Shown here piece by piece: positions 2,665 to 28,991 of a stretch of DNA of 32,000 bases. Made by a program: the position numbers and the translations under genes. Position 1 is the stretch's first letter. The number at the start of each line of letters is the position of its first letter. The stretch covers positions 3,600,001-3,632,000 of the forward strand of contig JAIZWK010000001.1 in assembly GCA_021498095.1 (NCBI GenBank), read 5' to 3'. The DNA is from Candidatus Harpocratesius repetitus. Its GTDB lineage: Archaea > Asgardarchaeota > Lokiarchaeia > Sigyniarchaeales > Promethearchaeaceae. The notes under the pieces are model-generated. The model did not search any database. It was not told where the DNA came from and saw only the letters and a list, made by a program, of their open reading frames with translations.

Positions 2665-2797
2665 TTTCTTTCATCTATCGAATATAATAATAGAAAAAAT
2701 GAAAAATGACATATAAATTTCAAGATATTCATAATTGAATCACAAAAGATTTACAGAAGATTGACAAACGTGATATTTTTATGCCCACAATTTTCCC

Positions 2798-4435: not shown

Positions 4436-4614
4436 ATAAAAAGAAATTACAAATGTCTTTTGAAGTATTTGGTTTAATGATAGAATATTACAAAAATTTC
4501 TTCTAAAATCCCATTATCTTATACATCTCAAGAAAGCGGGATAAAACTTAAATTAGGAAATTTAATAAAAAAAGAATAAAAAGAACTCATCTTTCTTGAA
4601 AAGTGGAAAGAAAC

Positions 4615-5577: not shown

Positions 5578-5734
5578 ATAATATCAAATTATTTAAGATA
5601 AGATCAAAAATGAAATTATCGCAATGATCTAAAATAGAATAAATTAGAAAGAGAATTATTAGAAAAAGAATCAAAAAAATATATAAGAATACATATAGAA
5701 ATACATAGTATTTTAAATAGGCATTTCATGAATT

Positions 5735-6268: not shown

Positions 6269-6270
6269 AA

Positions 6271-10016: not shown

Positions 10017-10085
10017 TTCTTTTCTTCATATTTTTTAAGTTTTTTTCATTATTTTGAAATTTTTTCTTCTTTTCTTCTTTTCTTC
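10017..10085 (+). terminator. T-rich tract, probable archaeal oligo(dT) terminator
   Basis: Pyrimidine-rich run with several T5-T7 tracts directly after the TAA at 10014-10016. Confidence 0.45.
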
Positions 10086-10291
10086 AGTTATTCAAATTAT
10101 TTTAATCTTCTAGGTGAAATTGTTGGATCTTTTTGCAAAAATTAAAATAAATTAAATAGATACACTCTTTAATCTGAATTTTAAAGGGAAGATTCAAACA
10201 TATATACATATCAATAGTTGCTTGAATGTTTCAAGGAATCTTATTACAAAGTAAAACATTCAAATATTTACAGAATTTCATTCACCCACGA

Positions 10292-10986: not shown

Positions 10987-11685
10987 TCAAATTTTGTTAT
11001 ATTCTGTGTTTTTTAATAAAAATTCGCAATATTTAATATCTTCATATGAATCAATATCAACACTTCGTGTACGAGGCATGATATATGGCATTATTTTTTT
11101 TGAATAAAATCCTTGATTTTTTCTGAAACTTTGTACAGATGAGATATATATCGCTCCATTGGAAATATAGGTTTGTGGAAGAGTTTGGCGTGGTTTTTTA
11201 AAATAATCAAGAGAAAACAATGGATGGAGGTGATTCTCTGAAATTGTGAAACTCCAATATGGAGAATGTTCAGATTCGCAAACGCTTATAAGCGCTTCAT
11301 TTGATCTTTGCTGCAGAAATTTAGATATTGCTTCATCAATATCCTCAGTGGAACGAAGTGGTGAAGTTGGTTGTAGTAAAACAAGCAAATCGGAATTATT
11401 AATTTTAGGTTGCATTTGAGAGAGAAAATCCATAATAACATCTACTGTAGAAGAATTATCTTGAGCAAGTTCATCTGGGCGATTAATAATTTCAATTGGA
11501 AAGCTTTTAACATATTCCTTAATATTGGGATCTTCAGTAGATACAAAAATAGAATCAATTAAATTAGAGTTTAATGCAGCATCAATTGTATATTTTATAA
11601 GTGGTTTCTGTAAAATAGGAAATAAGTTTTTTCGTTTTACTCCCTTAGATCCACCTCGAGCGGGAATGATTGCATAATTTGCCAT
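10987..11685 (-). CDS. Acylneuraminate (CMP-nonulosonate) cytidylyltransferase, copy 1 (NeuA/PseF/LegF family)
   Basis: IIPARGGSKGVKRKN, VSTED, RPDELAQDNSST, LLQPTSPLR, SNGAIY, SVDIDSYED. Confidence 0.95.
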   Translation of the reverse strand: MANYAIIPARGGSKGVKRKNLFPILQKPLIKYTIDAALNSNLIDSIFVSTEDPNIKEYVKSFPIEIINRPDELAQDNSSTVDVIMDFLSQMQPKINNSDLLVLLQPTSPLRSTEDIDEAISKFLQQRSNEALISVCESEHSPYWSFTISENHLHPLFSLDYFKKPRQTLPQTYISNGAIYISSVQSFRKNQGFYSKKIMPYIMPRTRSVDIDSYEDIKYCEFLLKNTEYNKI

Positions 11686-11750
11686 ATAATTAAGTTAGAT
11701 ACACAATAAGAAAAAAATTATTATTTCAGATAAGAATATATATTTCAATA

Positions 11751-12641
11751 ATGCATTTTCAAGAAAAGATTTTTGTTTCGAGTTCTTGTTTAAAACCAAA
11801 ACTCTCTATTTCAGAAATTGTGGATTTATATTTGAAGAATAAGATTAACAAAATCGAATTAGGCTCGTCCCATAAATATGAAGAAAATATAATTTCAAAA
11901 TTAAAGAAAAAGAAAAAAGAAAATCCTTTTGAATGTACAATACATGCTTATTTTCCTCCTTTAGAAGACTCTTTCTTTTTTGTAAATCTCGCTTCAAATA
12001 AGCCAAAAATTGCCTTAAGAAGTAAAAATTTTGTTAAGAAAATGATTGATTATTCAGCAGAATTGGATGCAAAAATGTGCAGTTTTCATTCTGGATTTCG
12101 TTGGGATCCTGTAGATTCATTAAAATATAATGGTCAGGAGATATATGATTATGATAAATCCTATCAAATTTTCCTTCAAAATATTAAAGAAATTTGTATT
12201 TATGCAGAAAAAAAGAATGTTCCTTTGGCATTTGAACCCAATGTTGTATCAGCAAACAGTTTAATCAATGGAAAAAATTTACTCTTAATGATGTGTGAAC
12301 ATGATGAAATTAGAAAACTATACAAAGATTTGGAAGATACTGGAATAAGAAATTTGCAATTATTATTAGATGTTGGTCATTTAAAGGTTACTGCAAATAA
12401 TCTTAATTATAGTTTTGATGACTTCATTAAAGAGTTTAAAAAATATATTGGAGAAATCCACATTCATGATAATGATGGTTTAATGGATACTCATGATCAA
12501 ATCACCCAAAATTCAAAAATTGGAAAAGTTTTAGAATCTTTAAAAAATGAAAAAGACATGATCTTTACTTTAGAAGCAGGGAAATTGAGTATTGATGAAA
12601 TTAAAGAACAAAAAGAATTATTAAGAATAATTCTATATTAA
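11751..12641 (+). CDS. Xylose isomerase-like / AP endonuclease 2 family TIM-barrel metalloenzyme
   Basis: IHAYFPP, FHSG, AFEPN, LLDVGHL, EIHIHDNDGLMDTHD, FTLE: metal-ligand pattern of the family. Confidence 0.85.
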   Translation: MHFQEKIFVSSSCLKPKLSISEIVDLYLKNKINKIELGSSHKYEENIISKLKKKKKENPFECTIHAYFPPLEDSFFFVNLASNKPKIALRSKNFVKKMIDYSAELDAKMCSFHSGFRWDPVDSLKYNGQEIYDYDKSYQIFLQNIKEICIYAEKKNVPLAFEPNVVSANSLINGKNLLLMMCEHDEIRKLYKDLEDTGIRNLQLLLDVGHLKVTANNLNYSFDDFIKEFKKYIGEIHIHDNDGLMDTHDQITQNSKIGKVLESLKNEKDMIFTLEAGKLSIDEIKEQKELLRIILY

Positions 12642-12653
12642 TGAGGAATCCTT

Positions 12654-13730
12654 ATGAAAAGTGTAAGTTTTGCACCTCCAGCAATTGGAATAGAAGAATA
12701 TGAAGCAATTAATAAAGTATTTTCATCTGGTTGGTTATCTCAAGGTCCCGAAACAGACCAATTTGAGAAAGAATTAGCCGAATATATTGGATGTAAGCAT
12801 GTAATTGTTGTAAATAATGGAACTTCTGCGTTAATCTGTGCTTTACTGTCACATGGTATTCAACCTGGTGATGAAGTAATTGTTCCAGCATATACTTTTA
12901 TTGCAACGATTAATTCTGTATTATCAATAGGCGCTAAACCTGTTTTAGCTGATATAGACAGTCAAACTTGGAATACTACCCCAGAATTGATGAAAAAAAA
13001 GGTTACAGAAAAAACAAAAGCAATAATGCCTGTTGATATTGCAGGAATGGCAGTAGATATTGATGAATTTGAAGATTTTGCATCAGAAAATAACCTAATT
13101 ATGATAGAGGATTCAGCAGAATCAATAGGTGGGGAATATAAAAAAAAGAAAATTGGTTCTTTTAACCATACCTCAATTTTCAGCTTTCATATGGCTAAAT
13201 TAATTACCACTATTGAAGGTGGATGTATATCTACAAATGATGATGAAATTGCTCAAAAAATTCGTTCAATTAGAAACCATGGTATGGAAGGTAAATATCA
13301 TTATGTAAACTTTGGATTAAACTTACGCACAACAGATATTCAATCAAGTATAGGTCGGATTCAATTAAAAAAAATTGATCAATTTATTAATCACAGAAAA
13401 AAAATGGTCCAAATTTACCGTGATAGATTAGGAGATAGAGTTTCATACCAAAAAATACCATCATATATATCAATCCATCCCTATATGATTTTTTCAATTC
13501 AAGTAGATGGAAATCGTCGAGATGATATTAATACATATTTAAATCACAATCAGATCTCTACTAGAATGTGGCCATCGATTTATAAATCACCATATCATAA
13601 TCAACTTTTTAATGATGAATTTCCAAATGCTGATAAAGTTGCAAATAGCCTTATTAATTTGCCAATAGGGAATGGAATAAAAGAAAATGAAATAAACTAT
13701 GTTTGTGATATATTACTGAAAAAACTATAA
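12654..13730 (+). CDS. DegT/DnrJ/EryC1/StrS PLP-dependent sugar aminotransferase, GDP-perosamine synthase-like
   Basis: SGWLSQGP, NNGTSAL, GDEVIVPAYTFIAT, IEDSAESIG (AE variant as in PerA), FSFHMAKLITTIEGG (PLP lysine), GLNLRTTDIQ; immediately upstream of gmd. Confidence 0.9.
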   Translation: MKSVSFAPPAIGIEEYEAINKVFSSGWLSQGPETDQFEKELAEYIGCKHVIVVNNGTSALICALLSHGIQPGDEVIVPAYTFIATINSVLSIGAKPVLADIDSQTWNTTPELMKKKVTEKTKAIMPVDIAGMAVDIDEFEDFASENNLIMIEDSAESIGGEYKKKKIGSFNHTSIFSFHMAKLITTIEGGCISTNDDEIAQKIRSIRNHGMEGKYHYVNFGLNLRTTDIQSSIGRIQLKKIDQFINHRKKMVQIYRDRLGDRVSYQKIPSYISIHPYMIFSIQVDGNRRDDINTYLNHNQISTRMWPSIYKSPYHNQLFNDEFPNADKVANSLINLPIGNGIKENEINYVCDILLKKL

Positions 13731-13745
13731 GAAGGAAGAAATGAA

Positions 13746-14801
13746 ATGAAAAAAGCCTTGATTACTGGTGTTAATGGACAAGATGGTTCTTATCTTGCAG
13801 AATTATTATTAAAGAAAGGATATGAAGTACATGGTTTAATTCGACGAAGTAGCATAATGAAATTTGATCGAATAGAGCATCTCATTCAAGATCCACAATT
13901 AAAAGACAAGCATAAATTCTACTTACATTATAATGATATGACAGATTCTTTAAACATAACAAAATTACTAAAAACAATAGAACCAAATGAAATTTATAAC
14001 TTAGCTGCTCAAAGCCATGTTAGAATTTCATTTGAAACGCCTGAGTATACATCTAATGTTGATGCATTGGGAACACTGAGATTATTGGAATCTGTTAAGT
14101 TCTTAGGATTAGAGAACAAAACAAGAATCTATCAAGCTTCAACAAGTGAATTGTACGGATTAGCAACTGAAATACCTCAATCAGAAACAACTCCCTTTCA
14201 TCCACGAAGTCCTTATGCAGTTGCAAAACTTTATGCTTACTGGATAACTATCAATTATCGTGAAGCGTATAATATGTTTGCGAGTAATGGAATATTATTT
14301 AATCATGAATCCCCTCGAAGAGGAGAAAATTTTGTTACTAGAAAAATCTCTTTAATGGCTTCTGAAATTGCTTTAGGAAAACGAGAGTGTTTATATTTAG
14401 GAAATATGTATGCCAAGCGAGACTGGGGGTACGCAGCAGAATATGTTGAAGCGATGTGGAAAATACTACAAATAGATAAACCAGATGACTTTGTCATAGC
14501 AACTGGAGAAACGCATACAGTTAAAGATTTTGTTGAAGCTGCATTTCATCATTTAAATATACCAATTCGTTGGGAAGGTGAGGGTGTAGACGAAGTTGGA
14601 ATTAATGAAATCAATAACAAAATAATTGTTCGCATTGATCCTTACTATTTTAGACCTGCTGAAGTTGAATATCTTTTAGGAGATCCAACAAAAGCTAAAA
14701 AGATACTAAATTGGGAACCCAAAGTCAAATTTAAGGAATTAGTAGGTATTATGGTTGATTCTGACTTGAATTTATTAAAGAAAAAATATCATCTTCTATA
14801 G
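13746..14801 (+). CDS. gmd: GDP-mannose 4,6-dehydratase
   Basis: [89 protein letters not shown]. Confidence 0.97.
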
Positions 14802-14810
14802 AATGGAATA

Positions 14811-15920
14811 ATGGTTATACAAATGAGAATTGAAATTAAAAACAAACGAACTATTGGAAAATTAGAGCCTATTTTTTTGATTGCAGAGATTGGAATTAAC
14901 CATATTCTCAATGAAAAGGACAAAATGAAATTGGGACTATCAAATTCCTTTGAAGTTGCATGTAAAATGATCGATATAGCAAAAGAAGCTGGAGTTGATG
15001 CAGTTAAATTTCAAACATTTAAAACTGAAGAACTTCAATTTCAAGGAATAAGTAAACCTGATTATCAAGAACAAAATGAAGAAATTAGAGAATCCTATTA
15101 TGATTTAATAAAAAAATATGAAGAAGATTATAATGAACAAAAAAAGATAGCCGATTATTGTAATAAAGTCGGAATACTTTTTCTTTCTACACCTTATGAT
15201 ATTGAAAGTGCTCTTTTTCTGGTTAACGAATTAGAAGTTCCAATTATCAAATTAGCATCTATCGAATTGAATAACCACCATTTTTTAAAACAAATCGTAC
15301 AGTTTAATCTGCCAATAATTTTATCAACAGGTTTAAGTAATGAAGAAGATGTAGAAGAAACCATAAAATTAGCTCAAAAAATGCATTTTAAAGACCGTTT
15401 AATATTACTTCATTGTACATCTGATTATCCAGCAAAAAAACATGAAATCAATTTAAATATCTTAAAAAACTACTATAATAAATATCCGAATATGTTATTT
15501 GGTTATAGTGATCATTCAGAAAACAATTTACCATCTTTAGGTGCCGCTGCAATTGGTGCAGTGGTAATTGAAAGACACTTTACATTAGATAAATCATTTT
15601 CAGGCCCAGATCACCGTGCATCTATGAATCCCAGCGAATTAAAGAAATGGGTGGAAGAAATTAGAAATATGGAAGTAATTCTTGGAAATTATACTAAAGA
15701 AATAACAGAATCTGAAAAAAAAAATCTTAATATGCGTAAATTCTTAGTTCTTAATCCAGTTAAAAAAGGGACTATTATTTCAGAAAATCACTTAACTACA
15801 ATGCGCACTGGAAAAGGAATTCTTCCAAAAAATTGCAATCTACAGAAAATTATAGGTAAAAAAGTTTGCAAAGATATAAAAAAAAGGACCATTTTTTCAT
15901 GGGATCTCATTTCTGATTAA
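14811..15920 (+). CDS. Nonulosonate synthase (NeuB family) with C-terminal SAF domain, copy 1, atypical N-terminal motif
   Basis: IAEIGINH, DAVKFQTF, FLSTPYD, IILSTG, LLHCTSDYPA, GYSDHS, IERHFTLDK, GPDHRAS, SAF-like tail. Confidence 0.93.
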   Translation: MVIQMRIEIKNKRTIGKLEPIFLIAEIGINHILNEKDKMKLGLSNSFEVACKMIDIAKEAGVDAVKFQTFKTEELQFQGISKPDYQEQNEEIRESYYDLIKKYEEDYNEQKKIADYCNKVGILFLSTPYDIESALFLVNELEVPIIKLASIELNNHHFLKQIVQFNLPIILSTGLSNEEDVEETIKLAQKMHFKDRLILLHCTSDYPAKKHEINLNILKNYYNKYPNMLFGYSDHSENNLPSLGAAAIGAVVIERHFTLDKSFSGPDHRASMNPSELKKWVEEIRNMEVILGNYTKEITESEKKNLNMRKFLVLNPVKKGTIISENHLTTMRTGKGILPKNCNLQKIIGKKVCKDIKKRTIFSWDLISD

Positions 15921-15960
15921 AAACCTTAGATATTTTTATAATATAAATAATATTGGAATA

Positions 15961-16647
15961 ATGAATATGGTGATTCATAGAAAGATTCTAATAATTGGGG
16001 CAGGAGTCCACGCTCAAGTAATACTTGATATCTTATCTTATGATTTAAACAATGAAATAATTGGATTCACAGATAAAGATAAAAGAAAGCATAATTCATT
16101 AATTAATGGAATACCTGTAATTGGGGATGATAGTGTCATTCCCAAACTAATTAAAAATAATGAAATTAATTCGATTATCATTGGATTAGGCTATGAACTT
16201 ATCGAAAAAAGAGAAATTCTTTATAATGAAATTAATAAATTAAACATTGAATTAATAAATGCAATTCATCCCTCTGCCATTATTGCAAAAAATGTAAAGC
16301 TTGGGAAAGGAATTGCGATTATGGCAGGATCTATTATAAATCCCAATAGCGATATTCAAGATAATGTTGTAATAAATACAGGAGCAATTATTGATCATGA
16401 CAATTATATAGGAAAGAATTGCTTTATCCAAGTAGGAGCTAAGTTAGCAGGAAATGTTAGAATTAGTGAGAATTCCATAATTGGATTGGGAGCAAATATT
16501 TTGGAAAAAGTAAAAATTGGGAGAAACTCCATAATAGGTGCTGGAAGTGTAGTTAATAGGAATATTCCAGATAATGTGATTTTTGTCGGAGTTCCTGCAA
16601 AGTTCTTGAGAAAAAATATCCGTATAACTAATGAAAGAATAAATTAA
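15961..16647 (+). CDS. Sugar N-/O-acetyltransferase, NeuD/PglD/PerB family (left-handed beta-helix)
   Basis: LIIGAGVHA, IGFTDKD, AIHPSAII, INTGAIIDHD, hexapeptide repeats, GVPAK. Confidence 0.92.
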   Translation: MNMVIHRKILIIGAGVHAQVILDILSYDLNNEIIGFTDKDKRKHNSLINGIPVIGDDSVIPKLIKNNEINSIIIGLGYELIEKREILYNEINKLNIELINAIHPSAIIAKNVKLGKGIAIMAGSIINPNSDIQDNVVINTGAIIDHDNYIGKNCFIQVGAKLAGNVRISENSIIGLGANILEKVKIGRNSIIGAGSVVNRNIPDNVIFVGVPAKFLRKNIRITNERIN

Positions 16648-16666
16648 TAAAAAATAGGATAAATGT

Positions 16667-17878
16667 TTGAATATGAAGATTAAAGAGAAATTAGTCCAAT
16701 CAAATAAAATAATACTCATTGGTTTTATTCAAAATCATCATCCAATTTACATTGCCCTAATTAATTTTTTGCTTGAATTCAATCCTTCCATTACGTTATT
16801 AACCACAAAAGAAATTTTCATGCAAATCCAACATGAGATTGATTCAAACAAAATAGATTTACATCTTGAATCGCGCAAATTAAATCGCATGTTGAAAAAA
16901 AATTTGAAATTAATAAATTCTCATGAAATCGTCATAATGGAAGAATATTATGGTGGTTTTATTAAAATCTTTAATTTAAAATTCAAAAATCCCAAAAAAA
17001 TTGCAATAGTTCATAATGTGAATAAATGGTTTCTTGTAAGGGGAAGTATTTATTATTTTATTGATCTTCTCTTTAAATCAAGATATATATCTCAATTTGA
17101 TGCATATATAGTAATGTCCCCTGTAGTAAAAACATACTTAAAATCTTTTATAAACAATAAGAATATCTTCTTTTTCCCAGGAGAAGAAAACTATTCTTCA
17201 GAACCAAACCCTTATCATAAACTAGAAAAATTAGATCAAAATATCATACATAATGGAAATTACATTGAGATTGTTGTTCCAGGAATGATTTCAGAAAAAA
17301 GAAGAGAATATATCAACTTATTACTGGTTTTAAAGCAATTTTATAAAAATAATCCTACTTCTAAAATTAGAATTAACCTTTTAGGATCAATTAACAATAA
17401 GGAAAATGATCAAGATAGAGATAAAATTTTAGAAATTATCAACGAATGTAATAATCTTTCTCCAATTGAAGGAGAAAGAATAAAATATGGTAAAAAATTT
17501 ATCCCAATGGAGGAATTTACGAAAACATTGGAAAAAGCAGATTTAATATTGTCTAACGCAAAAGTGTTTAATCTTTTGGAAGATCGTCTAGAAATATATG
17601 GAATAACAAAAATAACGGGGATTTCTTATATAATCTATCGATATGAAAAACCTGCTATAATTCCAAATCATCAAAATATATTACTTGGTTTTGATAATCA
17701 ATTTATTAAGTTTTCAAATTATACTGATATTATAGATATTTTCAACCAAATTGAAAAAAAAGAGATAAATTTAGAAATTTTGAAGCGAAATGCTTTTAGA
17801 AATAGAAAAAAATTTAATCAATTGATAAAAACAGAAAAAAATAAGATCAAGGATTATTTGAATTCTACTGATATGTGA
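16667..17878 (+). CDS. Uncharacterised protein, probable GT-B glycosyltransferase
   Basis: Soluble 403 aa; AIVHN, IVVPGMISEKRREY, LEKADLIL, YGITKITG and KPAIIP resemble GT-B C-terminal lobe elements; last gene of the per-gmd-neuB operon. Confidence 0.55.
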   Translation: MNMKIKEKLVQSNKIILIGFIQNHHPIYIALINFLLEFNPSITLLTTKEIFMQIQHEIDSNKIDLHLESRKLNRMLKKNLKLINSHEIVIMEEYYGGFIKIFNLKFKNPKKIAIVHNVNKWFLVRGSIYYFIDLLFKSRYISQFDAYIVMSPVVKTYLKSFINNKNIFFFPGEENYSSEPNPYHKLEKLDQNIIHNGNYIEIVVPGMISEKRREYINLLLVLKQFYKNNPTSKIRINLLGSINNKENDQDRDKILEIINECNNLSPIEGERIKYGKKFIPMEEFTKTLEKADLILSNAKVFNLLEDRLEIYGITKITGISYIIYRYEKPAIIPNHQNILLGFDNQFIKFSNYTDIIDIFNQIEKKEINLEILKRNAFRNRKKFNQLIKTEKNKIKDYLNSTDM

Positions 17879-17889
17879 AAAAAGGTAAA

Positions 17890-20250
17890 TTATTTTAGAA
17901 ACCTGCGAATTTTTCTGTAAGCTTGTATAAATAAAGTTATTATTATACGAATGTGAAATAAAAGAAGAGGATATCTTAGTAAAACATGTAAAAATCTATT
18001 TTTCATAATTAATTTTGAAAAAATATTCATTTTATGAACAAAAATTGGATTATAAATTCTACGATATTTTTGACTCTCAGTTATTTCAATGTACTTAAAT
18101 AATATACTTTTTCTATGCATAATTTTTTGTTTTAGTTTAGAATCTTTGAGAAGGAAGGTATAATTAGAATTTAGAAAAGGAAGAAATTCATTAGGTAAAA
18201 ATTCTGTTTTTATACGTTCCAATTTTGTTTTTTTATTAATCACTTTCTCAAATTTCTTTGACTGAATTAAGAATTTATTAGTAATTTGATAATTTTGAGT
18301 AAATATTCCCCGAGAAATTCGATCATCTTTTATTAACTTTTCCTTTATAATATTAGCTAAATGTAATTTAATTCTATTAACTATATGGATATATATCTTA
18401 TTGGCATAATTTAAATATTGAATAAAAAGATGATTTGGGAAAATTAGATTATTTTTACGGAAGAAATTATTCCTATTCAAAAAGTTTTGAATTAAGCTTA
18501 TGTTGATTATAGGATCTTCATTAAATTTAATACATATTTGTTCGTATATATATAAAGGATATTTTATTGCGTTTGTAACCTGAAGACCTATTCTTGTTCC
18601 TTTGTCTCTTTCATTAGGTTTAAAATAAAAGGGTATTGATACAGTTGAGATTAACTCAACTAATTGAATCATTTGATAATCAAGATCATCAAGAATAAAC
18701 GATGAATAAGAGATTTTTCTCCCACACAAATAAGTTAGAGAAGTAGCAGGTCTAATCATTTGAATATCTTTAAATAAATTCTCATTTATAATCATTGGAG
18801 CATGTTCATATAATAAATATTTCTCTTCCCAACTAAAATGACTTTTCAGAAGAAAATGGATTTGATCATTATTTATTTTCTTCTCATCTATTATAAAACA
18901 TAAGTCAATATCTGAATTTCCAACTGCATGAACAGTTCCAAATTGAAAAATTGAGATTATACCATCAATTTGGCAGAATTTTTTTATTATTTTTTGAGTG
19001 CAATAATTGTAAAAAGAAAGATCTTCAAATGGGTAAGATTTTTCTGATTTATTAAAATAGCCTTTTTTTTGAAGATATTCAAATCCATTAATACAGTATT
19101 GAGAAAATTTGAATGAATAAAACAAATTATTTAATTGATTCCAAAATCGATTAATTCTCCTATTCAATTTTATTTCTAAAACAGAAAAGAATAGGTTTAA
19201 AAATCGAATATTAAAGAGAAAAGAAAATATTATTCGTAAAAATGTAGTTTTTTGGGGTGAACTCCCCCAAAACATATAGAATTGATTTACAGACTGATAA
19301 AATTGCTCTATTTCTGGAAAGATAGATTTAAATTCCTCAGAAAAGATTATATTGAAGGATTCTTTTTTATAGCAGAAAACTCCGAGTGTTTGCAAAAAAC
19401 TAAAGGGAAATGAATAGATTCGATGAATATAACGCACTTTCTTGAAAATATTAAGTGATTTCGTTTTACTTTCGTAATATAATGCTAAAGCATCTGAAAT
19501 AATACTTAGAAAATATTTCCTTTCATTGATATAGTTTTTAATTTCCATAATGTTTATTAAATTATCTAAAGACCATACTTCACCAAAGTCTATGCAGGAT
19601 AATGGTAAATACTGATTTGAGAAAAAATTCAATTGAAAATCTATTGAAATAAAAACACCATGAAGTTGAAATATTTGAAATTTGTAAATTATATCACAAA
19701 ATTCTTGTATTTTATTTCTAATATTTCGTAAATAGTTTTTATTTTGAAAAGATTCTTCCTTTATAACAATAAAAAGATCTATATCGCTCCATCCTGGTTT
19801 ATAATCACGAGAACCAATACTGCCATTTAAGAGAATAATTGAAAAATCATCTTTATATTCATTAATTTTTTTATTCAAATCGGATAAAAGCTTTTTTTGA
19901 AGAAAGAAGCCATAGTAGTTTTTTTTTTTTTTCTTTTTATTAACAGAAATTGAATGCTTTTTTGTTTTTAATTCTGATTTTTGAGACATATTTCTTATTA
20001 TAAAATATAATTTGATTATTCTATCTTCAATACTTAATTCAGAATAATCATCAAATATCGAATTTTTAATCAAATTTGGAAATTTAGAAGAAAATTGTGA
20101 AATTTGGTGAGTTAATTCTTTTTTATCCCTTTTTGAAAATTTTTTTTTTTTGCTAAAAACATTCGAATTAATGTTAAAGTATCTATAAAGCAAATCATTA
20201 AATTCAATATTTAGTTTTAAAATCATTTCTTCTGAAGAGAATTCTTCCAT
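17890..20250 (-). CDS. Uncharacterised 786-aa protein with two Pol-beta-superfamily nucleotidyltransferase domains
   Basis: Motif 1 LNGSIGSRDYKPGWSDIDLFIV (about 19775-19840); motif 2 FQFGTVHAVGNSDIDLCFII (about 18895-18955); each followed by a helical-looking region. Confidence 0.75.
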   Translation of the reverse strand: MEEFSSEEMILKLNIEFNDLLYRYFNINSNVFSKKKKFSKRDKKELTHQISQFSSKFPNLIKNSIFDDYSELSIEDRIIKLYFIIRNMSQKSELKTKKHSISVNKKKKKKNYYGFFLQKKLLSDLNKKINEYKDDFSIILLNGSIGSRDYKPGWSDIDLFIVIKEESFQNKNYLRNIRNKIQEFCDIIYKFQIFQLHGVFISIDFQLNFFSNQYLPLSCIDFGEVWSLDNLINIMEIKNYINERKYFLSIISDALALYYESKTKSLNIFKKVRYIHRIYSFPFSFLQTLGVFCYKKESFNIIFSEEFKSIFPEIEQFYQSVNQFYMFWGSSPQKTTFLRIIFSFLFNIRFLNLFFSVLEIKLNRRINRFWNQLNNLFYSFKFSQYCINGFEYLQKKGYFNKSEKSYPFEDLSFYNYCTQKIIKKFCQIDGIISIFQFGTVHAVGNSDIDLCFIIDEKKINNDQIHFLLKSHFSWEEKYLLYEHAPMIINENLFKDIQMIRPATSLTYLCGRKISYSSFILDDLDYQMIQLVELISTVSIPFYFKPNERDKGTRIGLQVTNAIKYPLYIYEQICIKFNEDPIINISLIQNFLNRNNFFRKNNLIFPNHLFIQYLNYANKIYIHIVNRIKLHLANIIKEKLIKDDRISRGIFTQNYQITNKFLIQSKKFEKVINKKTKLERIKTEFLPNEFLPFLNSNYTFLLKDSKLKQKIMHRKSILFKYIEITESQKYRRIYNPIFVHKMNIFSKLIMKNRFLHVLLRYPLLLFHIRIIITLFIQAYRKIRRFLK

Positions 20251-20383
20251 AATATGTGTTATTGAACGAATTTGAAAAATATTTTTATATTCTTAGTTTA
20301 AGAGAAATAGAGTAATCAAAGAAATAAAAAAAAATAAAGAGAAGGAAATAATTTAAAACTTAAATAACTAATGGTGGAGTTAA

Positions 20384-21691
20384 ACGAAGAAAATATTAAT
20401 TGTACCCCATTACGTAAATTCCTTAATATATTACCAAAAATTATTTCAAAAATTTAATAGTCATGATTTTGAGTTAGTTTATCTAATCAGAAATAACCAT
20501 TTTGGCAAAATTATGAAGGATTATTGTATTAAATCAAATTTAAACTATATCAAACTAAAGTATCCTCTTTTTAATAATTCTAAATTCGCAAGTATTCTTA
20601 ACATTTTATTTATTGGTGTCTTTAAATTACAAGTCAAAAAAATATTGCAAAAAAATAATCCAAACTTGATAATTCAAACTAATGACACGAATCTTATTAA
20701 CAATGTAATAGTTTCCACTGCTAAAAAGAAAAATATTTTAACTTTAGTTATACAATGGGCTCAAACTGCTCCAGAAGATTATTATTTAAAACTAAAGAGT
20801 TTAAATACAAATCATAAAGAATTAACAAAAAAAACACATATAACACATTGGTTCCTCCATAAATTAACAAATTTCATGCTAAAAATCTCTCAGATACCTA
20901 AATTCAATAAAAAATCATTAGCCCAAGGTAATTCAGACTATGTTTTCGTAATTAACGATTATACAAAGAAACTTTTAATTAAACAAGGTGTAAAAAAAGA
21001 AAAAATATATATCTCAGGTTCTACAGCATATGACGATGCGTTATCCATAAATCTACCTAAAAGAGAAGAAATTAAGAAAAAAATAGGAATAAATAATAAT
21101 AATATTACAATTTTATTCATTTCTCAACCGTTTTATGTTAAAGATATTCGAATTATGAAAAAAGAAAAACAAATTCAATACATCAAAGATATAATTGTTT
21201 TCTTTAATAATTTTTATCAAACACAGAATAAAGAGGTAAATATAATTTTAAAACTACACCCTGTTGAGCTTAAAAAAGATTATATTGAATTGACTGATTC
21301 TTGTAAAAATATATTGATTTTAAGTGATTTTAATAACTTAGAATTAATAAAAATCTCAGATTTATGTGTTGGATTCAGTTCAACACTTCTACAATCAGTA
21401 ATAATAATGAAAAAGCCAATCTTGTGTTTAAATATGATTCCAGAACTAAAATTTATAATTGAAACTCAATCAAAAATATCTGGAATAACTCAAGATATAA
21501 AATCTTGGAATGAATTATCTAAAACCTTAAAGATCTTGGAAGAAAATGGATATCAACAGTTAGATAATGTAAATATGAAAAACTTTGTTTTAGATCAGAA
21601 AGTTTACTTAAGATTAGAGACTTGGATTCATGAATTACTATTTGATAATCATATAATTTCTACGAATTTAGAACCAAATGAACAAGAATAA
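20384..21691 (+). CDS. Putative GT-B transferase (capsule-synthesis / CDP-glycerol phosphotransferase / sialyltransferase-like). Start extended to ACG 20384; first in-frame ATG is 20513
   Basis: ILFISQP, ILKLHPVE, SDLCVGFSSTLL, KPIL; the frame is open 43 codons upstream of the ATG (TKKILIVPHY...) behind a GGTGGAG SD-like site. Confidence 0.65.
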   Translation, partial: TKKILIVPHYVNSLIYYQKLFQKFNSHDFELVYLIRNNHFGKIMKDYCIKSNLNYIKLKYPLFNNSKFASILNILFIGVFKLQVKKILQKNNPNLIIQTNDTNLINNVIVSTAKKKNILTLVIQWAQTAPEDYYLKLKSLNTNHKELTKKTHITHWFLHKLTNFMLKISQIPKFNKKSLAQGNSDYVFVINDYTKKLLIKQGVKKEKIYISGSTAYDDALSINLPKREEIKKKIGINNNNITILFISQPFYVKDIRIMKKEKQIQYIKDIIVFFNNFYQTQNKEVNIILKLHPVELKKDYIELTDSCKNILILSDFNNLELIKISDLCVGFSSTLLQSVIIMKKPILCLNMIPELKFIIETQSKISGITQDIKSWNELSKTLKILEENGYQQLDNVNMKNFVLDQKVYLRLETWIHELLFDNHIISTNLEPNEQE

Positions 21692-21703
21692 TGGGTAATT
21701 ATT

Positions 21704-23308
21704 ATGAATGTAAAAGATTTTTGGATAAATTATACTAAAAAAATAAATATTTATCGAGAAGAAAAAAAAATTTCTTCTGATACAGTAGATTTATTTAAGG
21801 AACTTAAATCTACAAATAAATTACAAGGGAAAACTGTGGTATTTAATACGGTCCGCAGTTTCAAAAATATTTTTGACTTAGAATTATTTTTTGGAAAATT
21901 ATTAGCTAAAAATGGAGCGAAAGTTATAATATTATTAGATAATGGTGTTTTAAATCATTGGGATACAATTAAATTTGATTCTTTAAATGTAATTAAGTTA
22001 GAAAGGAAAAAACTCAACCCTTATTATAAATTTTTTTCGAATTTTACAAGTTTTATTTCACCTCAAATTAGAATAATAAAATTACATAAAGAGATTTATC
22101 AAGATCCTAATTTAGAAATTATATTTTATAGTAATATTTTGAAAGGTATTGGGTTTTCTGATATAAAGAATAAGAATTTCCATCACCATGCAAAAGCTTC
22201 AACAATTCGATTTTTCAAAAACTCTGATTTTCAGATTGATGACCCCCCTTATTCTAATTATTATGACCTATCGATGGAAAATTGTAAATTGACATTTGCC
22301 ATTGGTGAACAAATATATGAAAAATACCATCCAAATGTATTTATCACTTCTCATGGTATATATTCAACTTGGGGTCCTATGTATGACTTTTTTAAAACAA
22401 AGAAAATTAAAAGTTATGTCTATGCCGGGAAACATAGTCATGCTCTAAATCAAAAATACATTTACTTTACAGACTCAAAAGTTCAAACTTTAACAAGATC
22501 GAGTTTTTGGAATAAATATAAGAATACACAAGTAACTACAGAAATGAAAAAGAAAGTGGATGAATATTTTAAAACTAGATTTAGACATGCTACAATGGAT
22601 ACAAAAGTTTATTTTGGTGAAGAAGCAAATATTCTTCAAATTGTAAAAGATAAACGCAAGAAATTTAATATTGCAATATTTCCTAATTCAATTTGGGACG
22701 GAAATATCCATGATCGTCATCAAGCATTTGAAGGAATTATCGATTGGTTGGTGAAGACGGTATATTATTTCAGAAATAGAGAAGATTGTCAAGTTTATAT
22801 TAAATTTCATCCCGCAGAAATAACTTTTTTTCAAAATCCAGAAGGATTAGCTGATATCCTAAAAAAGAAAATCCCAGGATTGGAATCATTTGAAAATATT
22901 AAATTAATTAGACCTCATGAAAAAATTGAAACATACAAATTTTTAAAGAGTGGTATCGATTTAGGTATTCTTTATGATGGAATCTTAGGATTAGAACTTC
23001 CATACTTGAGAATTCCGGCGTTATTAGCCGGAGTAGGGGGAAGATTTACGATAGAAGATGGAAATTTCACAATCAAAAATAAGGATGATTATTTTAACAT
23101 CCTTAATAATTTGGATTATTGGATTGAAAATTTCAAGTCAAATTATGATTATTATTTAAACCAAATCATTAGATATACTTATTGGTATATTTTTGAACAT
23201 CCATTTGAACTTGTAACTCAATCCCCTACAGGTCGATATCAAAGATCATTGAAAGGATTAAGTAAAAAAGATTTAGTAATACCTGATAAACTGCTTTCTT
23301 TGTTATAG
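21704..23308 (+). CDS. Capsular polysaccharide biosynthesis protein (KpsS/Capsule_synth-like GT-B), possible nonulosonate transferase
   Basis: VFITSHGIY, IAIFPNSIWDG, VYIKFHPAE, GILGLELPYLRIPALLAG. Confidence 0.6.
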   Translation: MNVKDFWINYTKKINIYREEKKISSDTVDLFKELKSTNKLQGKTVVFNTVRSFKNIFDLELFFGKLLAKNGAKVIILLDNGVLNHWDTIKFDSLNVIKLERKKLNPYYKFFSNFTSFISPQIRIIKLHKEIYQDPNLEIIFYSNILKGIGFSDIKNKNFHHHAKASTIRFFKNSDFQIDDPPYSNYYDLSMENCKLTFAIGEQIYEKYHPNVFITSHGIYSTWGPMYDFFKTKKIKSYVYAGKHSHALNQKYIYFTDSKVQTLTRSSFWNKYKNTQVTTEMKKKVDEYFKTRFRHATMDTKVYFGEEANILQIVKDKRKKFNIAIFPNSIWDGNIHDRHQAFEGIIDWLVKTVYYFRNREDCQVYIKFHPAEITFFQNPEGLADILKKKIPGLESFENIKLIRPHEKIETYKFLKSGIDLGILYDGILGLELPYLRIPALLAGVGGRFTIEDGNFTIKNKDDYFNILNNLDYWIENFKSNYDYYLNQIIRYTYWYIFEHPFELVTQSPTGRYQRSLKGLSKKDLVIPDKLLSLL

Positions 23309-23316
23309 TATAGAAT

Positions 23317-24195
23317 TCAGTTCCAAAATGAGGTATTAATATTAACAATTTTACTTAATTTTTGATTTGGATTTTTAAAAAACTTCTGAAGATTTGAAAC
23401 CGTTTCTAAATCCATAGAAGGATATCCTACTTCTTTTTTATAATTGAAAGCAATCATTTTATGATAAAGTTGTGCTACTTGTCCTCCATTTTTGAAAAAT
23501 GGTTTTCCAAATTTTGTAATTCGATCAATAATTTTCTGGATTTTTTGATTTTTAGGTAAAACTGTAACATTTTTTTTGATTGATACATCGATTTCAATAT
23601 CTGGATTAATACCTAAAAAAACGAATATATCTCGTAAAATTTTCTGAGTCGAATTAAAATCTTTGGTATATTCTTCAAAGGTTGTGAAAAACATTTGTTT
23701 TTTAGGAAAAAAGTGTAAAAAATATTCAACATGCATAAAATATAAACTACGATATAAATAACCTTCTAGTTTTCCTAGTTCTATATATTTCATTTCTTCT
23801 TCAATTACTTCTTTAAATGCACGGTTTTCCCTTCCTTTTTTATAAGCATGCCAATAATCTGAATATGCTCTATCAATAGGATTTCGTAAAATCCATATTA
23901 ATTTTGCAGATGGTATAATTTTTGCAATATTTTCTGCGTATTCTTTCTTCAAACAATAATTTGGTGTTTTTTCACCAATGATCGATTGATTTTGATAACC
24001 TGAAAATTCATTTGCATACCAATCCAAACCTTTAGAATAATGTTTTTCGTTGTTAAAGAAGTGAATTTCATGATCAGCCATAAAAATATCTGGATGTTGA
24101 CTTAAATGATAACTTAAAGTGCTTGTGCCAGATTTCATTGCTCCAACGATTAAAATATTTGGCAATATTATTTTTCTTCCCCCCAGAAATATCAA
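23317..24195 (-). CDS. PAPS-dependent sulfotransferase (probable true start TTG at 24165)
   Basis: 5'-PSB GAMKSGTSTL, EIHFF, GEKTPNY, 3'-PB ILRNPIDRAYSDY; GGGGGAAG purine run upstream of the TTG. Confidence 0.92.
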   Translation of the reverse strand: MIFLGGRKIILPNILIVGAMKSGTSTLSYHLSQHPDIFMADHEIHFFNNEKHYSKGLDWYANEFSGYQNQSIIGEKTPNYCLKKEYAENIAKIIPSAKLIWILRNPIDRAYSDYWHAYKKGRENRAFKEVIEEEMKYIELGKLEGYLYRSLYFMHVEYFLHFFPKKQMFFTTFEEYTKDFNSTQKILRDIFVFLGINPDIEIDVSIKKNVTVLPKNQKIQKIIDRITKFGKPFFKNGGQVAQLYHKMIAFNYKKEVGYPSMDLETVSNLQKFFKNPNQKLSKIVNINTSFWN

Positions 24196-24240
24196 TTATT
24201 TATTTTTATAAAGTAAAAAATGATAAAAAAATTCTCACTT

Positions 24241-25260
24241 CTATGATTTTAATCGAAAAAGAAATCTTTGAACGAATTCTTTAATAAGACGAGCAAAATC
24301 TTTAAAAGATTCGAGGAATTTGATCGGAGAATAAAAATCATGTAGATAAAAAACTAAATGATAATATGTTCGAGGAACAAAAATCTTTTTTTTTAATGCC
24401 ATGAATATAACATTTCGAGCGAGTCGTTTACTTTTAGCTAAACACAACAATTCAAATATTTTATAACAGAAAAATTGGTAAATTTCAATATCATCTTTAA
24501 TAAAAGATTTATACTTTTTCCAAATATAAAGATATGCCCATATTTTGGTAAAAGGCTTTTTTATTAAACTTTCATAGGTTATACTAGATTTATGAACATA
24601 ATGATTTAACAAAGGTTTACTTACATATTCACATTCATAATATAATGCGATTCTAATCCACATTTCATAATCTTGATGGCCTCCTTGCCTTAAAATTTCT
24701 GATTCATCGAACAAACCTACTTTCTTAAATACTTCTCGTTTGATGAGGGGATAAACACCAATCACTCCTTGAGTCAACATTTCTTTAAAGACTTTACCAG
24801 AATACTTTGGTAAAATATTTCGATTTAAACCAGGTTGAATCAAAGTCATTCCAGGAAAAACAAATCCAACCTTTTTTGGAGATTTCTGTAACTTTAGCAA
24901 TAATAATTCTAACATTTCAGGGCGCCAATCATCATCTGAGTCTAAAAGTATGATATACTCACCTGATGCTGCTTTTATTCCACGATTACGTGTGAAATTG
25001 GGTCCCATGTTTTTTGAATTTACAATAAGTTGGATATTAGAGTAATCTTTCATCAAGGAACGAATAATTGAAACAGTTTTATCTTTTGAACAATCATCCA
25101 CAACAATAATTTCAAAATTTTGATATGTTTGGTTTAAAACACTTTCAATAGCTCGTTTTATTGTTGACTGGCGATTGAATGAAGGAATAATTACAGATAT
25201 TAAACTAGATTCAATAGCTGAATTCATAATGGAATAATGGAATAATGTAATTTTAAGCAT
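24241..25260 (-). CDS. GT2 family glycosyltransferase
   Basis: ISVIIPSFNR, EIIVVDDCSKD, RNRGIKAASGEYIILLDSDD, QDYEMWIRI. Confidence 0.94.
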   Translation of the reverse strand: MLKITLFHYSIMNSAIESSLISVIIPSFNRQSTIKRAIESVLNQTYQNFEIIVVDDCSKDKTVSIIRSLMKDYSNIQLIVNSKNMGPNFTRNRGIKAASGEYIILLDSDDDWRPEMLELLLLKLQKSPKKVGFVFPGMTLIQPGLNRNILPKYSGKVFKEMLTQGVIGVYPLIKREVFKKVGLFDESEILRQGGHQDYEMWIRIALYYECEYVSKPLLNHYVHKSSITYESLIKKPFTKIWAYLYIWKKYKSFIKDDIEIYQFFCYKIFELLCLAKSKRLARNVIFMALKKKIFVPRTYYHLVFYLHDFYSPIKFLESFKDFARLIKEFVQRFLFRLKS

Positions 25261-25427
25261 TGTATTCTGATTATGCCTATAATTCTAGAAAATGTCTTTA
25301 AATTATACATGGTTGCAAAATTGGTGAATTTTATGAAGTTGTGCTCAATTGACTTCCTTTTATCTTTGAATGAATTTGGGAAAAGATTATTTTTATCAAA
25401 TGATTCATAAAAGTTTTTTCTTAGCAG

Positions 25428-26939
25428 TTGTTCTTTATTTTAAATATGAAAGAGAAACTAGCAATTCAGATGATTTTTCAAATTTCTATAAGAATTTTGT
25501 CAATGATTAGTACTTATATTTTTATTTTAAAAGTTTCGTCTGGAATATATGGAACGATCCATTTTGTTTCAGATACAATTCAAATGTTTTTAGTTCTTAT
25601 CTCAATCGGATTTGATTCTATCTTAAATAAACAATCAAAAGAGCATAATTTTAGAGAAATTTTTGTAAACTATTTTTATATTAAGTTATTTCTAATTCTT
25701 ATCAATTTTATTCCTATTTTTATATTTATTATAATTATGAATTACGATTTTTCGTTCTATTTTGTAATTACAGCATTTTCTATCATGCTAAATAATATAA
25801 GCGGAAGTCTAATTTGGATAATCAAAGCACGTTTTAAGCTTTTTAAAGTAAATATTATTGGTTTTGTATATAATTTACTTAACTCAATATTAACTATATT
25901 TCTTGCTTTAAATTTAGATAAAATTTCAGATATTTTAGTTTTAGTTGGAATAATTGCTCTTGGTTCCTCTTTTCTTAATTTCACTATGGTAGCTTTAGTT
26001 GTTAGAAAAGAATTTCAATTTAAAAGAATTAATTTTCTAATTATTAAAAAAATGATATTTGAAGCAAAACCACTAATTTTAGTTTCGATTTTTGCAACTT
26101 TTACAAATTACTTCGGAAATTTCCTATTAGGATATGCATATGGAGTTGTAATCTATGCAGAATTTGCTTTTGTGAATTCAGTAATTATTAGTTTTTTGTT
26201 ATTTATAAGTAATAGCATTACTGAGAATTACCAAACATTATACTCTATTTGGATAAAAGAAAATTCATATGAGAAAATTAGAAGGTTTGCCAATAAACTT
26301 GAAAAATTTTCTTCTATTTTCTTTGGATTAATTTTAACTGGAACTTTATTAAACGCAAAAATTGCATTAAAATTATTCCTTCCGAATTATATTAATTCCT
26401 TAATTTATATCCAAATTCTTATTTTTGTGCCTTACATTGCCAGTATTTCTCGACCTTATGGAAAAATCCTTGTTCCTGCAGGAAAACAAAAAGAATTATC
26501 ATTATTAACTTTTGTAAAACTAATAATACGATTAGTATTTTCATTAATATTAATCCCTCAGTCAATTTTTAGCATTAAAATGATTGGATTAGGAGTAATT
26601 GGAAATTGTATTGTAATATTGACTCCTTGGATTATTGATTTATTTTATTATCGGATTTATTTAAAAAAAACCTTCAATATTTTATTTTATACTCGGATTT
26701 TCGTTCATCTCTTGATAATAATTGTTATTCTAGGATTATCATATATAATCAAAAAATTTATTATCGAGATATTAATTAGTTCTGATTTAATCATTTTATT
26801 TTTATCTTCCTTTATTCTAACAATTTTATATTTTGGAGGATTTATTATCACAAAAGAAATTACAAAATCAGATATTGATTTCATTAAAAAATTTATAAAA
26901 ATTAAAAACTATAAAAATGCAATTAAGTCAGAATTTTAA
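25428..26939 (+). CDS. Oligosaccharide flippase (Wzx/MOP superfamily); likely start ATG 25446
   Basis: About 500 aa with 12-14 hydrophobic segments, YGTIHF, PYGKILVPAGKQK, located inside a glycan cluster. Confidence 0.85.
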   Translation: MFFILNMKEKLAIQMIFQISIRILSMISTYIFILKVSSGIYGTIHFVSDTIQMFLVLISIGFDSILNKQSKEHNFREIFVNYFYIKLFLILINFIPIFIFIIIMNYDFSFYFVITAFSIMLNNISGSLIWIIKARFKLFKVNIIGFVYNLLNSILTIFLALNLDKISDILVLVGIIALGSSFLNFTMVALVVRKEFQFKRINFLIIKKMIFEAKPLILVSIFATFTNYFGNFLLGYAYGVVIYAEFAFVNSVIISFLLFISNSITENYQTLYSIWIKENSYEKIRRFANKLEKFSSIFFGLILTGTLLNAKIALKLFLPNYINSLIYIQILIFVPYIASISRPYGKILVPAGKQKELSLLTFVKLIIRLVFSLILIPQSIFSIKMIGLGVIGNCIVILTPWIIDLFYYRIYLKKTFNILFYTRIFVHLLIIIVILGLSYIIKKFIIEILISSDLIILFLSSFILTILYFGGFIITKEITKSDIDFIKKFIKIKNYKNAIKSEF

Positions 26940-27022
26940 CAGACAGATATGACTAGATAAAAAATTATTAGATTACTTTACAAAATCAAAAATATGAAGA
27001 ATAAATTAAAAAACTGCAAATT

Positions 27023-27742
27023 TCAAAGAAACTTTTTTCTTTTTTTTATTAAAAATTCTGCAATATCCCAGTCATATTGATCATCGATATCAATACTTCT
27101 CTCTTTTGGCATGATATAGGGGATACAATTACGACCAATGATTCTTCTTTCTTTTAGTAATAATTCAGTTTTAGTTAAATAAATTGCGGCACCGTTTCGA
27201 GCATATAGTGGTTCTAAATCTTGTCTTCTTTTAATTTTCGATTGTGAATTTATATAACCTTTTATATATTTCTTATTTTTTTTCATTATTTTTTCAGGAT
27301 GATATATATGTGGTACTTCTACAACACTGACTAAAGAATCTGCTTGTGGATCATTTAGAATTAATTGAATTGAATTATCAATATCTTTTGCAGTTCTTAA
27401 TGGAGAAGTTGGTTGTAATATCATTATATAATCGGGTCTATACTGCTCTTTATCATTAAGATAATGTAAAGCATGAATTACAACATCAATGGTTTTTGAT
27501 TCGTCAGATGATAATGATACTGGTCTTTGGAATGGAGCTTCCATACCGCATGATTTGGAATAATTTATTATGTCTGGATCATCACTGGAAACAATGCATC
27601 TCGAAAGATATTTTGATTTTTCTACAGCATTAAAAGTATATTTTATAAGCGGTATTCCATTCAATGTTCGGATATTTTTTCGTAAAATCGTTTTTGATCC
27701 TCCACGTGCAGGAATTATACCCAAAATTTGTTTAATGTGCAT
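27023..27742 (-). CDS. neuA: Acylneuraminate cytidylyltransferase, copy 2
   Basis: IIPARGGSKTILRKN, VSSDD, RPVSLSSD, ILQPTSPLR, RNGAAIY, SIDIDDQYD; overlaps the neuC end by 11 nt. Confidence 0.93.
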   Translation of the reverse strand: MHIKQILGIIPARGGSKTILRKNIRTLNGIPLIKYTFNAVEKSKYLSRCIVSSDDPDIINYSKSCGMEAPFQRPVSLSSDESKTIDVVIHALHYLNDKEQYRPDYIMILQPTSPLRTAKDIDNSIQLILNDPQADSLVSVVEVPHIYHPEKIMKKNKKYIKGYINSQSKIKRRQDLEPLYARNGAAIYLTKTELLLKERRIIGRNCIPYIMPKERSIDIDDQYDWDIAEFLIKKRKKFL

Positions 27743-28931: not shown

Positions 28932-28991
28932 AGTTATTCCTCTTCTTTCTATATTGGATTATGAAAATAGTCAAAAAATTGAAAATATTTT

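Follow-up and report, generated by a model that had tools for sequence, protein, structure and literature searches.

A tandem nucleotidyltransferase-fold protein in a nonulosonic acid-rich glycan island of an Asgard archaeon

A 786-amino acid (aa) protein (P0001) that carries two different nucleotidyltransferase (NTase) modules is encoded in a surface-glycan island of the archaeon Candidatus Harpocratesius repetitus. The island lies in a stretch of 32,000 nucleotides (the window; NCBI GenBank assembly GCA_021498095.1, contig JAIZWK010000001.1, positions 3,600,001 to 3,632,000 of the forward strand), in which the gene occupies 17890..20250 on the minus strand as a single open reading frame (ORF), the stop codon counted; positions are given from the first letter of the window. 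Our analysis directly supports the fold of both halves, the conservation of their motifs, their paralogy, the existence of fused and split forms, the association with glycan loci and a predicted packing of the halves against each other. By analogy with characterized enzymes, the NTase pair may be a transferase acting on surface glycans, chiefly nonulosonic acids (NulO) or glycans that contain them, and we put the chances of this at about even. NulO are legionaminic, pseudaminic or sialic-acid-like sugars.

Results

Two distantly related modules with intact NTase signatures

The N-terminal module (N-module; aa 1-400, 19051..20250, minus strand) consists of N-terminal helices, an NTase core at approximately aa 113-237 and a HEPN-like four-helix bundle at approximately aa 239-400. 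The C-terminal module (C-module; aa 401-786, 17893..19050, minus strand) contains a second NTase core, a helical bundle and a C-terminal region without an assigned fold. NTase signature 1 (G143-S144...S155-D156-I-D158, GSIGSRDYKPGWSDID, aa 143-158) is encoded at 19777..19824 and signature 2 (G438...G444-N-S446-D447-I-D449, GTVHAVGNSDID, aa 438-449) at 18904..18939, both on the minus strand. The initial annotation of this DNA, made from the sequence alone, had described two distinct Pol-beta-type motifs about 290 aa apart in one 786-aa protein; both are indeed intact and lie 291-295 aa apart. The hG[GS] loop and the [DE]h[DE]h pair that define the Pol-beta superfamily in sequence are present in both modules. 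The Pfam family NTP_transf_2 matches motif 1 only (28.2 bits for a cut-off of 21, E 2.5e-6), and the C-terminal half alone has no Pfam match; Polbeta is matched in Pfam by 6 of 24 C-module relatives (best E 8.8e-6).

No significant similarity between the two halves was found by BLASTP. The family profiles of the N- and C-modules align in hhalign over 196 columns (probability 79.5%, E 1.5e-5), pairing the G-S/D-x-D elements with G-x/D-x-D and Q195-x-H197...D204 with E482-H483...E490, and because of this profile-profile alignment we consider the two halves to be ancient, distant paralogs.

Residue conservation was counted over 104 N-type and 28 C-type aligned relatives. In the N-type proteins S144, S155, D156, H197, P216, P282 and K295 are invariant, and G143, D149, D158, Q195, G198, S298 and F299 are kept in at least 90%. 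Column counts and the strand positions of the model define a Q195-x-H197-G198...D204 stretch (aa 195-206, 19633..19668, minus strand), in which D204 sits directly after strand 199-203; its column holds E or D in 84 of the 104 relatives (81%), and D/E204 is a candidate for the third carboxylate or catalytic base of the N-module. Within the helical bundle, column counts likewise define a Y294-K295-K296-x-S298-F299 motif around the invariant K295 (aa 294-300, 19351..19371, minus strand), a candidate phosphate or substrate contact. Among the C-type relatives G438, G444, S446, D447 and D449 are invariant, with strong conservation of H483, P485, E476, G510, R553, N560, R598 and R713. E490, the C-module counterpart of D204, follows strand 486-489 and is kept in 15 of the 28, E476 and E532 being better conserved. 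Judged from these residues, the N-site looks fully competent, and the C-site retains its metal ligands, with a less certain general base.

Predicted structure of the modules

AlphaFold2 (AF2) models were obtained for aa 1-400 with 104 aligned relatives (pLDDT 93.8, pTM 0.92) and for aa 395-786 with 28 (pLDDT 90.3, pTM 0.89). An alpha-beta-alpha-beta-alpha-beta core is found in both models, and structural alignments made with VIA-align span these cores; the NTase fold anticipated from the motifs is thus present in both halves. In Foldseek searches of the PDB neither model gave a match at E <= 0.001. The top rows for the N-module were the aminoglycoside nucleotidyltransferases (ANT) ANT(4'), AAD(9) and AadA, at E values of approximately 6e-3 to 4e-2, and those for the C-module were AAD(9) and AadA. 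Searching the PDB with the N-module profile returned motif-level matches only, to CdnD and kanamycin NTase (E 0.024), and the C-module profile returned only noise.

By VIA-align, aa 113-393 of the N-module match ANT(3'')(9) (7uy4_B) at Z 9.4 with 219 aligned residues and a root-mean-square deviation of 4.5, followed by AAD(9) (6sxj, Z 8.9) and ANT(4') (6nlt, Z 7.7). Among protein AMPylases, DrrA reaches Z 7.4 and two GlnE domains Z 6.8 and 6.3 with this module. The N-module bundle alone (aa 239-400) matches YutE/HEPN (Z 10.6) and HEPN toxins (Z 8.3-8.9). The C-module matches DrrA (Z 8.2, 223 aligned), AAD(9) (6sxj, Z 7.6, 189 aligned) and the AT domain of GlnE (Z 7.2), in a list that also holds many generic helical-bundle matches; its last approximately 150 residues lie outside every informative structural match. 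The Z values obtained with these models are middling, and fix the architecture (an NTase core with a HEPN-like bundle) but not a specific family.

The two halves are also predicted to pack onto each other. A complex model gave ipSAE values of 0.74, 0.76 and 0.74, with 0.04 for the best control; among solved complexes 58 of 80 reach the ipSAE mark, and among mismatched pairs 2 of 110, a calibration that is only rough here as in-house alignments were supplied. The runs share at least 69% of contacts, with a partner pLDDT of at least 77, and place helix 248-263 and residues 387-399 of the N-bundle against residues 593-618 of the C-bundle. This predicted bundle-to-bundle contact resembles a HEPN dimer. 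Since HEPN and ANT dimers have been solved, the result may partly reflect known structures, and we take the modelling as support for packing of the halves, short of proof.

A hydrophobic and basic helix (aa 757-785, 17896..17982, minus strand; Kyte-Doolittle 1.85) closes the protein. The initial annotation had called the protein soluble, and no clear transmembrane segment is found in its 786 aa; that part of the description stands, and the qualification it needs is that the C-terminal helix may contact the membrane, as a possible peripheral anchor.

Fused, adjacent and stand-alone forms

Profile hidden Markov models (HMM) of both modules were run on all ORFs of the non-redundant loci in which relatives of the gene were found (numbered with the prefix L). 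Of 19 testable loci, 14 carry both modules, either fused or as neighbouring genes. They are fused in the window and in L001, L003, L004, L008, L026 and L027, adjacent in the order N then C in L010, L013, L014 (weak), L016, L017 and L029, and in the order C then N in L022, with only the N-type in L018, L019, L020, L024 and L030; L015, whose contig stops after the N-type gene, is outside the count. In L010 the N-type gene (8001-9200) overlaps the start of the C-type gene (9197-10285), whose product matches the C-terminal half at E 2e-27, and L029 has the same overlapping arrangement in far more divergent form. In L022 (71-4577) the run of genes reads N, NeuB, CMP-transferase, C, N, with the N-type present twice and the C-type once. 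The N-type gene of L019 (7409-8477) apparently consists of two overlapping ORFs (HMM positions 43-264 and 270-353), by a frameshift or an assembly error.

A word-indexed search of 5.8 billion proteins returned only five relatives. When 1.84 billion representatives were scanned exhaustively with HMMER, 420 relatives passed E <= 1e-3, and 11 of these E <= 1e-30. Full-length two-module relatives of approximately 760-800 aa (P0002, P0008, P0003, P0004, P0005 and P0009) keep both signatures. Stand-alone N-type proteins of approximately 320-450 aa are numerous, stand-alone C-type proteins of approximately 330-370 aa are fewer, and a few relatives of 1,100-1,700 aa join both modules to TPR repeats and a radical-SAM/SPASM, methyltransferase or GT4 domain. 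The close homologs come from metagenome-assembled genomes (MAGs) of Promethearchaeota (Asgard). The gene is present in single copy in its genome; among 301 genomes sampled from its phylum two had a match, one being the window's own, and none was found in 40 close relatives or in plasmid and phage collections. Public records label the relatives only "hypothetical" or "predicted nucleotidyltransferase", and NCBIfam holds no model for the pair. The pair had been expected to be undescribed, and in agreement with this we found neither a curated family nor a characterized relative. In the NulO-locus literature searched, the sole "nucleotidyltransferase" is PtmE/LegX, which has a different fold.

Association with nonulosonic acid loci

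The context of the homologs was read from Pfam-annotated neighbourhoods and a tblastn census with the window proteins; a search for related loci with a 14-sequence alignment gave 3 genome loci and 11 metagenome loci. The loci derive from Promethearchaeota, a Desulfovibrionaceae MAG, an Oceanospirillaceae MAG and assorted metagenomes. In most loci the flanks that were read hold genes for NeuB and/or a CMP-NulO synthetase, which adjoin the NTase genes in L001, L004, L008, L010, L013, L014 and L018-L024. L014, L020 and L022 each have the NTase genes interspersed with those for NeuB and the synthetase in a single gene run, a hint that the NulO itself, or its nucleotide sugar, is acted upon. L003, L004 and L008 have methyltransferase genes directly upstream. 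One relative, of 1724 aa, is found in a 6-deoxyhexose locus without NulO genes; the wider family therefore seems to serve glycan loci at large, and its closer subfamily NulO loci.

A second protein recurs with the pair. In the window it is encoded at 21704..23308 (plus strand) and has 534 aa and no Pfam match; by language-model features only, it resembles KpsC/KpsS (Capsule_synth), PF05159 Capsule_synth being carried by 38-41% of the members of its nearest clusters (score 0.97). The PF05159 family includes the KpsC/KpsS CMP-Kdo transferases. Relatives of this protein are found in seven other loci, namely L003 (42% identity, E 3e-137), L004, L008, L010 (E 8e-85), L015, L016 and, weakly, L013. 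The counterparts in L003 (13751-15370), L004 (12383-14020), L008 (11788-13503) and L010 (3947-5491), which with the window copy measure 514-571 aa, are also without a Pfam match. We regard the protein as a candidate for a new CMP-ulosonate transferase family common to archaea and bacteria.

At 13450-15496 of L010, next to a short NeuB, a CMP-transferase and a HAD phosphatase (Hydrolase_3) are joined in one protein. Such a fusion is the hallmark of the NulO-9-phosphate (Kdn-type) route, and this segment is a second NulO pathway of that locus.

The glycan island of the window

The genome is archaeal, one contig of 4.36 Mb with a G + C content (GC) of 31.0%, and the window is a surface-glycan island rich in NulO genes. 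It encodes two NeuB-type synthases (14811-15920 and 28992-30032) and two CMP-NulO/Kdo-type cytidylyltransferases (10987-11685 and 27023-27742), together with a NeuC-type 2-epimerase, a DegT aminotransferase, a GDP-mannose 4,6-dehydratase, a NeuD acetyltransferase, a GT2 glycosyltransferase, a Wzx-like flippase, a sulfotransferase, two UDP-sugar dehydrogenases and RmlC. The first NulO set (10987-16647) comprises the CMP-transferase, a xylose-isomerase-like TIM barrel, DegT, GDP-mannose 4,6-dehydratase, NeuB and NeuD, and the second (27023-30032) the CMP-transferase, NeuC and NeuB, which points to two distinct nonulosonic acids, one of them perhaps derived from a GDP-sugar. The TIM-barrel gene also adjoins NeuB in L004.

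The NTase gene had been described as antisense within the locus and flanked by transferases, and both statements hold. Its ORF is real and antisense to its surroundings, since the neighbouring genes on one side (11751-17878) and on the other (20513-23308) are on the plus strand. It is convergent with 16667..17878 (plus strand; gap of 11 bases), which encodes a divergent glycosyltransferase of 403 aa that is GT4-like by Atlas features, and divergent from 20513..21691 (plus strand; 262 bases between), which encodes a TagF/GT-B-like protein of the BFO_1060/TIGR04396 "surface carbohydrate biosynthesis" type; the KpsC/KpsS-like gene follows the latter. The 403-aa protein is 55% identical to the product of L001 9515-10690, beside the closest homolog of the NTase gene, and the convergent arrangement is found there too. 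The GT4 domains fused in the relatives P0065 and P0047 were considered as a link to this neighbour and set aside, not being specific relatives of it. The product of 20513-21691 is a candidate nonulosonate transferase and shares 38% identity with that of a TagF-family (PF04464) gene in L008.

Positions 17001-27000, which hold the NTase gene and those for the TagF/BFO_1060-like protein, the KpsC/S-like protein, the sulfotransferase, GT2 and the flippase, have a GC of 24.3%, below that of every 10-kb window of the genome (minimum 24.9%). Positions 1-7000, at 35.8%, are among the highest. The low GC is what a variable and probably horizontally exchanged region would show, and the window as a whole looks like a mosaic glycan island.

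Further genes of the island include one for a Sulfotransfer_1 protein (23317-24195), which implies a sulfated glycan. It was considered as a conserved partner of the NTase gene and dismissed, as no counterpart exists in the other loci; L003 and L010 have neighbours of 292-293 aa, but these are related neither to this protein nor to one another. At the edge of the island, 30396-31469 encodes a radical-SAM/SPASM protein. Because P0026 and P0030, distant relatives of the NTase pair, are fused to radical-SAM/SPASM domains, the two activities may be linked. A 787-aa protein with an SBBP beta-propeller and PKD domains (7653-10016) adjoins the glycan genes and could be a glycan-bearing surface protein. 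No Rfam RNA family was found in the window.

Discussion

If the NTase pair acts on NulO, the protein would be a catalytically competent pseudo-heterodimer, formed by fusion of two anciently duplicated modules of an NTase core and a HEPN-like bundle, and would serve surface-glycan loci, above all those centred on NulO, as a dedicated accessory enzyme. Each active site would bind a Mg-nucleotide donor through its G-S loop and D-x-D pair, and would activate a sugar hydroxyl by the acidic residue past the third strand, which is D204 for the N-module and E490 for the C-module. What then moves to a NulO or a NulO-containing glycan would be a nucleoside monophosphate or, if the donor is NDP- or CMP-linked, a phosphate-linked group. 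The hydrophobic and basic C-terminal helix could keep the enzyme at the membrane where lipid-linked glycans assemble. The proposed reaction follows the logic of the ANT enzymes, whose substrates are also amino sugars; the reaction class, the sugar acceptor and the roles of D204, E490, H197 and K295 are inferred.

The likeness to ANT enzymes, first suspected from the style of motif 1, is borne out in both sequence and structure. As in the NTase pair, an NTase core followed by a helical, HEPN-related bundle and a G-S...S-D-x-D style of motif characterize ANT(3'')(9)/AadA, ANT(9) and ANT(4'). These enzymes are the best whole-module structural matches of the N-module, and for the C-module AAD(9)/AadA rank top by Foldseek and DrrA higher by VIA-align. 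The ANT architecture of an NTase core and a C-terminal helical substrate-binding domain is accordingly recognized in both (Z 9.4, 8.9 and 7.7 for the N-module, 7.6 for the C-module). Moreover, the acceptor of ANT enzymes is an amino-sugar hydroxyl, chemically near a nonulosonic acid. In contrast, identity to ANT enzymes is just 9-13%, the modules described here are 100-150 aa longer and have Q195/H197 and the Y-K-K-x-S-F motif as extra invariants, and no match was found to AadA_C, KNTase_C or the NCBIfam ANT models. Two different modules are fused here, whereas ANT(4') is a homodimer. Finally, ANT enzymes belong to antibiotic resistance and the NTase pair to glycan biosynthesis, a context that argues against a resistance role.

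Several observations weigh against a role in NulO modification. Structural scores are middling (Z 7-9, Foldseek E approximately 1e-2), and since protein AMPylases score about as well, the fold by itself is no pointer to a sugar acceptor. Conservation of E490 in only 15 of 28 relatives means that the C-module may be regulatory or may use E476 or E532. The locus counts are not independent samples, because the loci were reached via the NTase protein and some are related. To our knowledge, no nucleotidylated NulO glycan has been described.

Other functions known for this fold were weighed against the data. LicD, fukutin, FKRP and Cps7C (PF04991) are, like the pair, NTase-fold enzymes of glycan loci, and a phosphotransferase or polymerase of this kind would use a CDP- or CMP-linked donor to place phospho-substituents, or a phosphodiester-linked polymer, on a primer made by the KpsC/S-like protein. 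The LicD-family TPR and NTase protein Cps7C polymerises polyol-phosphate in KpsC/S-dependent capsule systems (PMC11666461). By analogy, it offers a precedent for NTase-fold enzymes in KpsC/S loci and keeps a phosphotransferase function under consideration here, where KpsC/S-like and TagF-family genes co-occur and some distant relatives carry TPR repeats as Cps7C does. We nevertheless judge such a function unlikely. The kinship with LicD/fukutin that the initial annotation had drawn upon found no support, PF04991 being unmatched by the whole protein (E <= 0.01) or the halves (E <= 1) and no LicD-type structure appearing among the top matches listed. The helical bundle is of the ANT/MNT type and not of LicD architecture, the accessory domains differ, and we saw no synthase for CDP-glycerol or CDP-ribitol in the window, whose cytidylyltransferases are all of the CMP-NulO/Kdo type. 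A GlnE/DrrA-type protein AMPylase or regulator, which would add, and perhaps remove, a nucleotide on a Tyr, Ser or Thr of a glycan-pathway enzyme or surface glycoprotein to control or decorate it, is in our estimate quite unlikely, although the architecture of GlnE, the classic protein with two NTase and helical modules per chain, is the one seen here. At Z 6.3-8.2 (220-246 residues), both modules are matched by domains of GlnE and by the AMPylation domain of Legionella DrrA/SidM, protein recognition would suit the TPR fusions of distant relatives, and the minimal nucleotidyltransferases (MNT) AMPylate HEPN proteins, a HEPN-like bundle being present in each module of the pair. However, only glycan enzymes recur beside the pair as possible targets, and both the fusions to GT4 and methyltransferase domains and the interleaving with NeuB and CMP-NulO synthetase genes suit sugar chemistry better. 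For the N-module, ANT enzymes rank above the AMPylases, and no Pfam or NCBIfam model of GlnE matches. The neighbours are glycan genes in nearly every readable locus, with neither the nitrogen-regulation context of GlnE nor a link to glutamine synthetase/PII, and the acceptor of GlnE and DrrA is a protein tyrosine.

It is highly improbable that the gene is a fused MNT-HEPN toxin-antitoxin or anti-phage element that landed in a variable glycan island. MNT-HEPN (MntA-HepT) type VII systems do share the combination of a minimal NTase and a HEPN bundle, and the N-module bundle matches HEPN toxins as described above; the segment has the lowest GC of the genome, and the distribution of the gene is very patchy. 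PADLOC reports weak matches to PDC-S09 (E 2e-5) and a CBASS cyclase (E 1e-3), but these span only approximately 50-65 residues around the motif, and neither a full-length match to these models nor a defence island was found among the homolog loci examined. Inspection by eye revealed no HEPN R-x4-6-H RNase motif in the bundle, the proteins are much larger than those of MNT-HEPN systems, and the phage and plasmid collections are without a match. Nearly all readable homolog loci, in two domains of life, are glycan loci, and relatives are fused to glycosyltransferase and methyltransferase domains. The gene neighbourhoods, which had been named as the deciding evidence on this point, thus place the homologs in glycan loci and not in defence islands or MNT-HEPN pairs.

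Returning to a transferase of NulO glycans, a more specific and doubtful proposal is that the N/C pair constitutes a new class of NulO-processing enzyme that works with the KpsC/S-like transferase, either adding a nucleotide- or phosphodiester-linked decoration of a new kind to sialic-acid-like sugars on archaeal and bacterial surfaces, or activating a sugar and then substituting it. In the latter case, one module would O-nucleotidylylate a NulO hydroxyl and the paralogous module would use the activated group for a new NulO derivative or linkage. Both the "activate then transfer" and the "two phosphodiester decorations" schemes of the initial annotation are speculation. Components of undefined composition (304.13, 311.08 and 303.10 Da) have been reported in N-glycans of P. 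syntrophicum (PMC11284389); this Asgard glycoproteomics study contains no direct link to the NTase gene.

The NTase fold, the ANT-like architecture and the presence of NTase-fold enzymes in glycan loci are already known. What appears undescribed is the paralogous N/C pair, its invariant Q-x-H-G and Y-K-K-x-S-F elements and its partnership with NulO and KpsC/S-like genes across two domains of life. Nonulosonic acids influence the way in which hosts, phages and immune systems perceive microbial surfaces, and NulO biosynthetic loci still contain many unassigned genes; here, a rare, well-modelled enzyme pair with intact active sites travels with NulO genes in Archaea (Promethearchaeota/Asgard) and Bacteria. 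The natural split pair of L010 is a convenient system for expression and assay. If NulO are indeed modified by the pair, this would be a new type of reaction in sialic-acid-like sugar chemistry, either nucleotidylation or transfer of a phosphoryl group by an NTase fold. It would extend the finding of NTase-fold capsule-polymer enzymes in KpsC/S-dependent systems (PMC11666461), and would help account for unassigned glycan masses such as those of the Asgard archaeon (PMC11284389).

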